Below are positions 3,001 to 6,000 of a stretch of DNA of 8,838 bases, one piece after another (the first letter of the stretch is position 1; each line of letters starts with the position of its first letter). A program made the position numbers. The stretch spans positions 1-8,838 of the IMG/VR virus record IMGVR_UViG_2654587588_000004; one strand, given 5' to 3'. This DNA comes from a virus (taxonomy: Duplodnaviria > Heunggongvirae > Uroviricota > Caudoviricetes).

Positions 3001-6000
3001 GGGGGACGCAGGATGATTTGACCTGCGCACAGTGGCTCTGGAAAAAAATCATCGCCCTGTACGAGCAGGCTGCCGAATGTGACGGCGAGGTGGTTCGTCC
3101 CAAAGAACCGAACTGGACAGCCTGGGCAAACGAAATTCGCCTGATGTGTGTGCAGGATGGTCGTACTCACAAACAAATCTGCGAGATGTACAGCCGCGTC
3201 AGCCGCGATCCGTTCTGGTGCCGTAACGTGCTCAGCCCGTCGAAGCTGCGGGAAAAATGGGATGAGCTTTCCCTGCGCTTATCGCCGTCCGTCAGCACGT
3301 ACACAGAAAAACGCGAAGACCCGTACTTCAAAGCCAGTTACGACAATGTGGACTACAGCCAGATCCCGGCAGGATTCAGGGGGTGAGCATGAGTCTTTTG
3401 AATGACGTTCAGAAATTCATTGAAGCCCATCCGGGCTGTACTTCCGGAGACATTGCGGATGCTTTTGCAGGTTACTCACGGCAGCGCGTTCTGCAGTCAG
3501 CAAGCAAGTTACGTCAGAGTGGGCGTGTGGCTCACCGTTGTGAAGGAGATACACACAGACATTTCCCGCGCCTGACTGAGAGAGCGCAGGATCCGGAACC
3601 ACAACCAGTTCGTGAAACCAGACCTGTGCGCAATTTCTATGTCGGCACTAACGATCCACGGGTGATTTTGTGCCTGACCCGCCAGGCTGAAGAACTGGAG
3701 TCCAGGGGCTTATACCGTCGTGCTGCAACCGTGTGGATGGCGGCATTCCGTGAAAGCCACTCCCAGCCAGAACGAAACAATTTTCTGGCGCGTCGTGAGC
3801 GGTGCTTACGGAAAAGCAGCAAGCGCGCTGCATCGGGTGAAGAGTGGTATCTGTCAGGGAATTACGTGGGGGCTTAATGAGTAATAAATATTGCCAGGCG
3901 CTGGTGGAACTGCGGAACAAACCAGCCCATGAACTGAAGGAAGTGGGCGATCAGTGGCGCACGCCGGACAACATTTTCTGGGGAATTAACACCCTGTTTG
4001 GCCCGTTTGTTCTGGATCTGTTTACTGACGGTGATAACGCCAAATGTGCCGCGTATTACACGGCGGAAGATAACGCGCTGGCGCATGACTGGTCAGAACG
4101 TCTTGCGGAGCTTAAAGGTGCTGCCTTTGGTAATCCCCCATACAGCCGCGCCAGTCAGCATGAGGGGCAATACATCACCGGCATGCGTTACATCATGAAA
4201 CATGCCAGTGCCATGCGTGATAAGGGCGGGCGCTATGTTTTCCTGATCAAAGCTGCCACCAGCGAAGTGTGGTGGCCGGAAGATGCGGACCATATTGCTT
4301 TTATTCGCGGGCGTATTGGTTTTGAACTGCCTGCCTGGTTTATCCCGAAGGATGAGAAGCAGGTGCCGACAGGCGCTTTCTTCGCTGGTGCTATTGCTGT
4401 TTTCGACAAGACCTGGAAGGGACCGGCAATCAGCTACATCGGGCGCGATGAACTTGAGGCATGTGGTGAAGCCTTTCTGGTGCAGGTTCGCCAGCAGGCG
4501 GAAAAACTGGTCAGGGAGATGGCGGCATGACGACGTTAACTCAATGCCAGCAGCAGGTGCTGGATATGCTGATTTCTTACCAGAAAGAGCGTGGCTTTCC
4601 GCCAACCAATCAGGAGGTGGCAACCATGCTGGGATACCGTTCAGTGAATGCAGCGGTAGAGCATCTTCGTGCACTGGAGAAAAAAGGCGTCATCACGATA
4701 AAGCGTGGCGTGGCCCGGGGGATAACGCTTCATACCGCGGTGAAGGACGACGACAGCGAGGCGGTCGGGATTATCCGCGCATTGCTTGCCGGTGAGGAAA
4801 ACGCCAGGCTGCGTGCAGCCCACTGGTTACATGAGAGAGGCCTGAAAGTATGAAGCTGATCTTGCCTTTCCCGCCCAGCGTGAACACGTACTGGCGACAC
4901 CCCAACAAAGGGGCGTTTGCTGGTAAGAGCCTGATAAGCGCGGCGGGGCGAAAATTCCAGAGCGCGGCGTGCGCAGCAATAGTTGAGCAGTTACGTCGTC
5001 TGCCGAAACCAACGTCGGCACCTGCTTCAGTGGAGATCGTGTTGTTTCCTCCGGATAACCGGATCCGCGATCTGGACAACTATAACAAGGCGCTGTTTGA
5101 CGCCCTGACCCACGCGGGTGTGTGGGAAGACGACAGTCAGGTGAAAAGAATGCTGGTGGAGTGGGGACCGGTTATCCCGGAAGGGAAGGTCGAGATCACT
5201 ATCAGTAAGTACGAGAAAACGGCGGGTGCAGCCGCCTGATTAAGAGGAGAAACGAAGTATGAATAATCTGATGGTCATTGATGGTATTGAAGTTCGTCGT
5301 GATGCTTATGGGCGTTACAGCCTGAACGATCTGCATCGCGCAGCAGTAGCATCTGGTGCAAATGCCAGAACCAAGGAGCCGGGAAAGTTTCTTTCCAGCC
5401 AACAAACTGTTGAGCTTGTTCATGAATTGACCAACACCCAGAATTTGGGTGTTGACCCGGTGAGTGTGATTCATGGGGGAAATGAACGGGGAACGTATGT
5501 CTGCAAGGAACTGGTGTATGCCTATGCAATGTGGATCAGCCCGTCATTCCATCTGAAGGTGATCCGTACTTTCGATATGGTAACCAGCGCACCGGAAAAA
5601 TTATCCGGACAGGCTGCTGACAAGATGCAGGCTGGCGTGATCCTGCTGGACTTTATGCGCCGGGAGTTAAACCTGTCTAACTCTTCAGTGCTTGGTGCCT
5701 GTCAGAAACTCCAGGAGGCTGTTGGCTTACCGAATCTGGCACCGCGCTATGCCATTGATGCTCCTGCTGACGCGCCTGATGGCTCAAGCCGCCCCACGCT
5801 GTCATTGAGTGCACTGCTGAAGCAGTATGGTATCCGCCTGACAGCTAATCAGGCATATCACCAGATGGCGAAGCTGGGGATCGTTGAACAACGTGAACGA
5901 TACAGCCGCACTGCGATTAACAACATCAAAAAATTCTGGTCGCTGACGGCGAAAGGCTGCATGTTCGGCAAGAACATCACCAGTCCCGCAAATCCGCGCG

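Follow-up and report, generated by a model that had tools for sequence, protein, structure and literature searches.

Does a bacteriophage that carries the DNA-binding domain of LexA, but not the domain through which LexA is inactivated, use it to hold SOS promoters closed? The question is raised by an 8,838-nt stretch of a virus of the class Caudoviricetes (positions 1 to 8,838 of IMG/VR record IMGVR_UViG_2654587588_000004; this whole stretch is called the window below). An open reading frame (ORF) at positions 4527 to 4853 of the plus strand, present in the ORF list, encodes a protein of 108 amino acids with a LexA-type N-terminal domain (NTD). The gene, referred to here as the LexA-NTD gene, matches Pfam family PF01726 (E = 2.9e-19) and family 362 of the PHROG database, and is identical to the copy annotated in Escherichia coli strain C1 (locus L001); its product carries the NCBI name "LexA family transcriptional regulator." The original prediction, made from the sequence, had assigned this ORF to a LexA DNA-binding domain without a peptidase domain and had proposed it as a candidate uncleavable binder of SOS boxes. 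As far as sequence comparison goes, the gene is best explained as encoding a sequence-specific DNA-binding regulator descended from proteobacterial LexA. Its function can be read only tentatively: we give a probability of roughly 0.42 to a RecA-insensitive surrogate LexA that binds and re-closes SOS-type operators during lytic growth.

The nature of the N-terminal domain was explored using profile and structure comparisons. Residues 1 to 65 align with the whole LexA_DNA_bind profile of PF01726 (positions 1 to 65 of 65) at 69 bits, where the gathering cut-off is 23.7 bits. The complete chain, residues 1 to 108, aligns with positions 1 to 106 of 106 of the PHROG 362 profile, "transcriptional repressor" (E = 1.6e-59), and the best sequence relatives retrieved by phmmer from the Protein Data Bank (PDB) are entries of E. 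coli LexA (E of about 1e-15). Judged by these scores, the similarity of residues 1 to 65 to LexA is far above chance. An AlphaFold2 model built from 15 family members, with a mean predicted local distance difference test (pLDDT) score of 85, displays a winged helix-turn-helix (wHTH) at residues 1 to 68 (positions 4527 to 4730, plus strand; pLDDT of about 90). It consists of helices at residues 6 to 22, 28 to 35, and 40 to 52 and of wing strands at residues 56 to 58 and 66 to 68, and is followed by a linker of low confidence (residues 69 to 75). The best Foldseek matches of this model are the LexA NTD in the LexA-DNA complex 3JSO, with a root mean square deviation (rmsd) of 0.8 Å over 68 residues at 50% identity. 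The match to the whole LexA winged-helix domain, which had been claimed from an alignment by eye, is therefore borne out by the structure prediction as well as by the profiles, which place the protein in LexA_DNA_bind and not in a non-LexA wHTH family.

The S24 peptidase domain, with its Ser119/Lys156 dyad, was not found in the 108-residue protein, which has no match to PF00717 and whose chain ends at residue 108. The LexA equivalog profile TIGR00498 is aligned only over positions 1 to 91 of 203, and the score of 70.5 falls short of the cut-off of 110.95. The original prediction was thus right about the missing Ser/Lys domain. Since the peptidase domain is absent, the protein should be unable to autocleave, and the insensitivity to RecA-stimulated autocleavage that had been proposed for it would follow. 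The further claim that the protein ends before any Ala-Gly cleavage site did not hold. HMMER aligned residues 2 to 90 with residues 2 to 86 of LexA, so that the homology reaches LexA residue 86 and Ala88-Gly89-Glu90 (positions 4788 to 4796) lies opposite LexA Ala84-Gly85-Glu86, the Ala-Gly codons being GCC GGT at positions 4788 to 4793 of the plus strand. At the place of this dipeptide, relatives of 85 to 87% identity have AN or VG, and those of 40 to 50% identity have ER, TR, SG, DD, AC, AE, or AD; in the AlphaFold2 model it stands at the end of a helix. This variation among relatives indicates that Ala88-Gly89 is a vestige of a full-length LexA ancestor and not a working cleavage site. A role of the dipeptide as a site of trans-cleavage or as a pseudo-substrate was rejected for the same reason.

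In place of the LexA C-terminal domain, the protein has a tail of 34 residues (residues 75 to 108; positions 4749 to 4850, plus strand) that is modeled as two helices, at residues 75 to 88 and 93 to 103, with pLDDT values of 90 to 92. The pattern EAxxxIRxLxAxxxxARxxAxxxLxxxG is kept in the tail throughout the family, at identities from 40 to 100%, and no counterpart of the tail was found in a Pfam scan or in a profile search of the PDB. With helices of 11 to 14 residues, the two-helix hairpin is too small for a core of its own, from which we infer that the tail dimerizes the protein, probably as a four-helix bundle. It could in this way supply the dimerization that LexA takes from its peptidase domain. 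Zhang, Pigli and Rice are said to have reported in 2010 that the DNA-binding domains (DBDs) of LexA are flexibly tethered and that the spacing of the box is set by the DBDs themselves. Repressors of the BlaI/MecI type, such as Rv1846c (PDB 2G9W), likewise combine an N-terminal winged helix with a short C-terminal helical dimerization module. Rv1846c was the only whole-length Foldseek match, although a weak one (rank 13; E = 0.013; rmsd, 8 Å), and these repressors have no sequence relationship to the window protein, which makes the analogy one of architecture only. A different arrangement is found in the metagenomic proteins P0133, P0148, P0157, P0161, and P0164, which have two tandem LexA DBDs per chain and no peptidase domain. 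These are single-chain pseudo-dimers, an alternative route to an uncleavable bivalent LexA-type binder.

The bases of the LexA operator are contacted by Ser39, Asn41, Ala42, Glu44, and Glu45 (PMC3091678). In the alignments, the recognition helix of the window protein (residues 38 to 48; positions 4638 to 4670, plus strand) reads RSVNAAVEHLR, versus RSPNAAEEHLK in E. coli LexA, and four of the five contact residues (S39, N41, A42, and E45) are kept. An identical SVNAAVEH helix is present in the full-length LexAs of betaproteobacteria recovered in the locus search (L047 to L050), and at those loci canonical CTGT-N8-ACAG boxes lie 0.5 to 1.2 kb upstream of lexA. Over the DBD, the window protein is 50% identical to E. 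coli LexA and 51% identical to betaproteobacterial LexA, while these two LexAs, which both use the CTGT-N8-ACAG box, are 59% identical to each other; the identity to LexA of Bacillus subtilis is 30%. These identities and the helix shared with the betaproteobacterial LexAs indicate that the DBD of the window protein is of the CTGT-box type.

The comparison was extended to 123 related phage loci, collected by single-protein queries (one query, P0191, had no match in viral contigs). Ser39 and Asn41 are invariant across these loci, and the wing residues R64-G65-I66 are invariant in the family alignment. Positions 44 and 45 vary: they are VE in the group of the window, AE or VE in 55 loci and VA in 26 loci of the P0131 group, AL in 16 loci of the P0172 group, and FI in P0191, and TD was also seen among the subgroups. 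Taken from the sequences, the argument for a LexA-like specificity holds best for the subgroup to which the window belongs.

Two genomic arrangements were distinguished among the relatives. In class I, which comprises the window and the P0131, P0123, P0126, and P0160 groups, the LexA-NTD gene lies within the rightward (pR) operon. An S24-type repressor is encoded upstream in 83 of the 84 class I loci with at least 5 kb of upstream sequence, and no SOS box occurs within 1.2 kb upstream of the gene, bar one GC-rich match; in the window, no CTGT-N8-ACAG was found within 4.5 kb upstream. In class II, formed by the P0137, P0172, and P0191 groups, an SOS-box promoter is followed by a small ORF (phrog_1813) and then by the LexA-NTD gene, and an S24-type repressor is found upstream in none of the 26 loci counted in the same manner. 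A canonical SOS box, typically TACTGTTTATTTATACAGTA, is located 435 to 530 nt upstream in 26 of 29 class II loci (L007 to L036), with a second box at -990 in some of them, and at L009 a terminator-like hairpin precedes the box. Over the 1.82 Mb of related loci, 32 of the 77 exact CTGT-N8-ACAG matches fall within 1 kb upstream of the gene. The SOS-box promoter of the P0172 group drives first a homologue of DinI (PF06183, 1e-23), a known modulator of RecA and the SOS response. By analogy, both arrangements fit a LexA-NTD protein that would appear once host LexA has been destroyed and, in the P0172 group, together with DinI.

The place of the gene before RusA/DUF968/Q is fixed in the relatives. 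RusA adjoins it in every group except P0172 (0 of 21 loci), and the Dam gene is missing upstream in many relatives. An obligate partnership with Dam or RusA was rejected on these grounds.

The class II operons resemble those of the Gifsy prophages, where an uncleavable repressor is combined with a LexA-controlled dinI-antirepressor operon in the order dinI, antirepressor, irsA (Lemire et al., PMC3121763). Class II phages likewise have a terminator and an SOS box, a DinI homologue in some cases, then a small ORF, and their repressors have no S24 domain. However, the third gene of Gifsy-1 (the "irsA homologue," STM2620) encodes a DUF1367 protein and not a LexA-NTD protein, and the identification of the class II LexA-NTD genes as irsA was therefore rejected. 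The window also differs from the Gifsy operons in having a cleavable CI repressor and no upstream SOS box.

In phages with S24-less repressors, the SOS box is invariably separated from the LexA-NTD gene by the phrog_1813 ORF (for example, at positions 7589 to 7894 of L032, 5713 to 5961 of L007, and 5724 to 5951 of L009). It is unlike GfoA, and homology between the two was rejected, given the lack of BLASTP similarity and a different PHROG; that it represents a candidate new family of LexA-controlled antirepressors is speculation. At positions 6839 to 7206 of L032, a second SOS box, TACTGTATATATATACAGTA, drives an ORF of 109 amino acids resembling UmuD/HumD (GFPSPAKDY motif, phrog_3469), directly 5' of the dinI-like operon.

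A candidate operator for host LexA, and possibly for the phage protein, is the canonical SOS box TACTGTAAAAATAAACAGTG at positions 8436 to 8451 of the window (no strand assigned), located within codons 4 to 9 of a late N6/N4 methyltransferase gene that lies after Q. No other exact CTGT-N8-ACAG occurs in the window; since at least one such match occurred in 23 of 200 shuffles of the window, a single match alone is not significant. Compared with the 20-bp SOS consensus, TACTGTATATATATACAGTA, the box agrees at 16 positions, among them all eight bases of the core. The box persists despite amino acid changes in methyltransferase homologues of 70 to 87% identity: it reads ...ATATACAGTG in a homologue with Asn replaced by Tyr, and CTGTTAATTTAAACAG in Providencia and Morganella phages where Lys-Ile is replaced by Asn-Leu, while a homologue with Met-Ser-Ser for Ile-Asn-Ser reads ...CCAGTA. 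In relatives it is found at positions 23910 of L001, 8741 of L009, and about 9147 of L132 to L134. This conservation through amino acid changes makes it very likely that the box is a real LexA operator, and suggests either that the late methyltransferase is under LexA control or that the late transcript meets a roadblock there.

Two other features lie next to this box. A leader of about 135 nt (positions 8290 to 8425), 5' of the late methyltransferase gene, is conserved in 81 phage records, which span several genera, with identities of 70 to 98%. An Rfam scan of the window, this leader included, gave no matches; the leader may be a promoter region or may act as a regulatory RNA. The last 125 nt or so of the window (positions 8712 to 8838, with a junction near 8743) are the end of an IS1 element, with 73,734 matches in E. 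coli genomes that are annotated as IS1 transposase. By this element the late DNA methyltransferase gene is cut short, whereas in E. coli strain C1 it is intact (350 amino acids).

These observations allow a mechanism to be proposed for a surrogate LexA. The tail would join two LexA-type DBDs by a flexible tether into a dimer, which should bind SOS-type operators because S39, N41, A42, and E45 are kept and the helix equals that of LexAs with CTGT-N8-ACAG boxes. RecA*-stimulated autocleavage would be unable to inactivate this dimer. In class I phages, the protein would be produced only after the prophage repressor has been destroyed, or on infection, and in the related class II phages it would be produced directly from the SOS-box promoter. 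The timing of its production would thereby coincide with the destruction of host LexA, and the protein would re-close SOS-box promoters. The candidate targets are the host SOS regulon, the LexA-controlled antirepressor or DinI modules of other prophages in the same cell, and the SOS box of the late methyltransferase. Class I phages being nearly free of boxes, a protein that binds SOS boxes would have to find most of its targets on the host chromosome or in other prophages. The arrangement and wiring of the gene fit an uncleavable surrogate LexA without proving such a role. Less likely than not is a wider form of the proposal, in which the lambdoid prophages of Enterobacterales possess a natural surrogate LexA that is resistant to RecA, built from two DBDs and a new miniature dimerization hairpin, and use it to shut off the host SOS response and to block the LexA-controlled antirepressors of rival prophages.

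The window protein shares with E. coli LexA (PDB 1LEA and 3JSO) the winged-helix fold, the signature S-x-N-A-A-x-E-H-L, and homology through the linker to the position of the cleavage site. In contrast to LexA, it has the two-helix tail instead of the S24 peptidase/dimerization domain and no conserved Ala-Gly, and its gene belongs to an early lytic operon of a phage and is not autoregulated from SOS boxes of its own. A functional analogy for the proposed mechanism is found in LexA(Ind-) mutants such as LexA3/G85D or S119A (PDB 1JHF and 1JHH), in which SOS boxes are occupied regardless of RecA*. Those are, however, laboratory point mutants of full length that retain the dimerization domain, whereas the window protein is natural and does without it.

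Several observations weigh against a surrogate LexA. The window protein has Val in place of E44 and Asn in place of R28. In about 45 of the 123 related loci, Glu45 has given way to A, L, I, T, or D, and it is lost even in class II proteins behind canonical SOS boxes. This loss in about one-third of the loci indicates that specificity differs between subgroups or is relaxed. Class I phages are almost without SOS boxes within 8 kb on either side of the LexA-NTD gene. The box at positions 8436 to 8451 is kept in phiP27 and in Providencia and Morganella phages, which have no LexA-NTD gene in the 9 kb upstream of it; the box is thus not tied to the gene, and was rejected as a dedicated target of the LexA-NTD protein. 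Moreover, being switched on after SOS induction is a weak argument when taken alone, as it is true of every early lytic gene. Finally, gp6 of the Bacillus phage GIL01, also a truncated phage LexA, changed its operator and activates transcription (PMC6182141).

This last case leads to the alternative that survives best. The window protein may be a phage-specific transcription factor similar to gp6, with a private non-SOS operator, that represses or activates phage genes (for example, in the timing of nin/Q or of replication) and has no direct effect on the host SOS response. GIL01 gp6 is the only characterized phage-encoded truncated LexA. It consists of the DBD alone, with three helices and a 14-residue wing, and no C-terminal helical tail was reported; it has a changed recognition helix in which K38 is essential, binds the site GaCACAn nTGTGaC, and activates the late promoter of a tectivirus of a Gram-positive host (PMC6182141). 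As in the window protein, a LexA DBD without an autocleavage domain is encoded by a phage, and gp6 is produced from an early promoter of GIL01 that DNA damage derepresses (PMC6182141). A private operator would also agree with the variation at positions 44 and 45 among subgroups (VE, AE, VA, AL, FI, and TD), with a DBD only 50% identical to that of LexA, and with the fixed place of the gene before RusA/DUF968/Q in all relatives. On the other side, and going by the published description of gp6, the window protein differs from it in having a LexA-like helix, a conserved tail, and relatives in SOS-box operons. Its helix is identical to that of bona fide CTGT-box LexAs, and the late genes of the window phage are under Q antitermination, so that a late activator of the gp6 type is not needed. 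A private operator is therefore a real possibility, which we hold to be somewhat less probable than the binding of SOS boxes by a surrogate LexA.

The distribution of the gene and the selection acting on it bear on the remaining alternatives. At 95% identity or more, it is present in 2233 of 5426 complete E. coli genomes (about 41%), and it occurs in 51 phage records, including SfII, Stx2a and Stx2c (Shiga toxin) phages, and 1720a-02, to which a protein search adds SfV, cdtI, and mEp460. An exhaustive HMMER search found full-length relatives of 105 to 135 amino acids, at 40 to 53% identity, that have the tail in common. The ratio of nonsynonymous to synonymous substitution rates (dN/dS) was determined in the largest sister group, with 73 distinct coding sequences, and is 0.20 for the wHTH, 0.20 for the tail, and lowest, at 0.15, for the recognition helix (helix 3). 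Values of about 0.2 indicate that the wHTH and the tail are both under purifying selection in this group. Among the database copies, some carry a frameshift or are fused to Dam. One match falls outside this pattern, a 326-bp contig of Fredinandcohnia humi (L046) that matches the first 37 codons of the gene with 100% identity and is almost certainly a contamination of that Bacillaceae assembly.

PHROG 362 is already annotated in databases, very common, and conserved, and it is of a kind already known, that of phage truncated LexA homologues. An example is the annotation "pham 237, LexA family transcriptional regulator, pfam01726" in 15 Stx phages (PMC8136144). In full-text searches of the literature, the family was met as an annotation only, and no functional study of it was found.

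A protein-level decoy or modulator would act without specific DNA binding, its tail or wHTH engaging the peptidase cleft of LexA or CI as a pseudo-substrate, or RecA*, ClpXP, or RusA, and would thus tune SOS or recombination. The idea draws on residues 78 to 90, which lie opposite residues 74 to 86 of LexA, including Ala-Gly-Glu, so that the first tail helix would descend from the cleavage-site region; on the tight translational link to RusA in most subgroups; and on the shared operon with the RecA modulator DinI in one subgroup. It is nevertheless improbable. The Ala-Gly varies among relatives in a segment predicted to be helical, the invariance of S39, N41, and R64-G65-I66 together with the lowest dN/dS in helix 3 points to selection for DNA contact, and RusA is missing from all P0172-group loci. 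The view that the gene is a decaying, functionless remnant of a captured lexA, to which the truncated architecture, the vestigial Ala-Gly, and the frameshifted or Dam-fused copies might point, is effectively refuted by its abundance in E. coli genomes, the retention of the tail in a full-length family down to 40% identity, the dN/dS of both modules, and an intact ORF with conserved translational coupling.

Should SOS boxes indeed be occupied by the protein, a large fraction of E. coli, Shigella, and Stx-phage lysogens would carry an SOS-rewiring factor that acts after prophage induction. This would bear on mutagenesis, on persistence, on the antibiotic induction of Shiga-toxin phages, and on which prophage wins in polylysogens. 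The protein would also represent a minimal natural design for dimerizing LexA DBDs. On the wider form of the proposal, a phage device for SOS shut-off and for competition between prophages would be present in about 40% of E. coli genomes. If the operator is private, the gene would encode a hitherto unstudied regulator that serves a very common prophage module.

The surroundings of the gene were identified with Pfam and PHROG. In order, the window encodes a CI-type prophage repressor, a CII-like protein, an O-like replication protein, a PerC/YfdN-like protein, Dam, the LexA-NTD protein, RusA, and, 3' of RusA, a KilA-N protein, a DUF968/HNH protein, the Q antiterminator, and the late methyltransferase. 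The window is thus the early-right arm of a lambdoid prophage. The repressor gene (positions 534 to 1208, minus strand) is ymfK-like, being annotated as ymfK in L001, and encodes an S24 peptidase domain (PF00717, 1.5e-26). The complete prophage of strain C1 with the identical LexA-NTD gene has HK97-type head genes and a contractile tail (tail sheath and tube).

The LexA-NTD gene is flanked by a Dam-family N6-adenine methyltransferase gene (positions 3877 to 4530, plus strand; PF05869, 1e-45; start as in the RefSeq annotation of the identical locus L001) and by a RusA Holliday-junction resolvase gene (positions 4850 to 5239, plus strand; PF05866, 6e-15). Its start overlaps the Dam stop in an ATGA at positions 4527 to 4530 (GGCATGACG), and its stop overlaps the RusA start in an ATGA at positions 4850 to 4853 (GTATGAAG). 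The original prediction had read the ORF and its ATGA coupling to both neighbors correctly, and overlaps of 1 to 4 nt occur at every gene junction from the O-like gene through RusA. By analogy with other lambdoid phages, RecA-stimulated cleavage of CI would free the rightward operon, and with it the LexA-NTD gene, from repression. Translational coupling within the early-right operon, read with the control logic of lambdoid biology, suggests that the protein is made with the delayed-early genes, after CI cleavage or on infection.

Two further observations concern this operon. A gene for a transcriptional activator of the PerC/YfdN family (positions 3383 to 3877) is translationally coupled 5' of Dam, so that one operon holds two small regulators, one PerC-like and one LexA-like, that possibly act on host genes. 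Inside the O-like replication initiator gene, at positions 2754 to 2815, the 15-bp unit TCTGACCCGTCAAAA is repeated in 4.1 copies and encodes a DPSKSDASKSDPSKFDASKS stretch; by analogy with lambda, these repeats resemble origin iterons that lie within the gene for the initiator.

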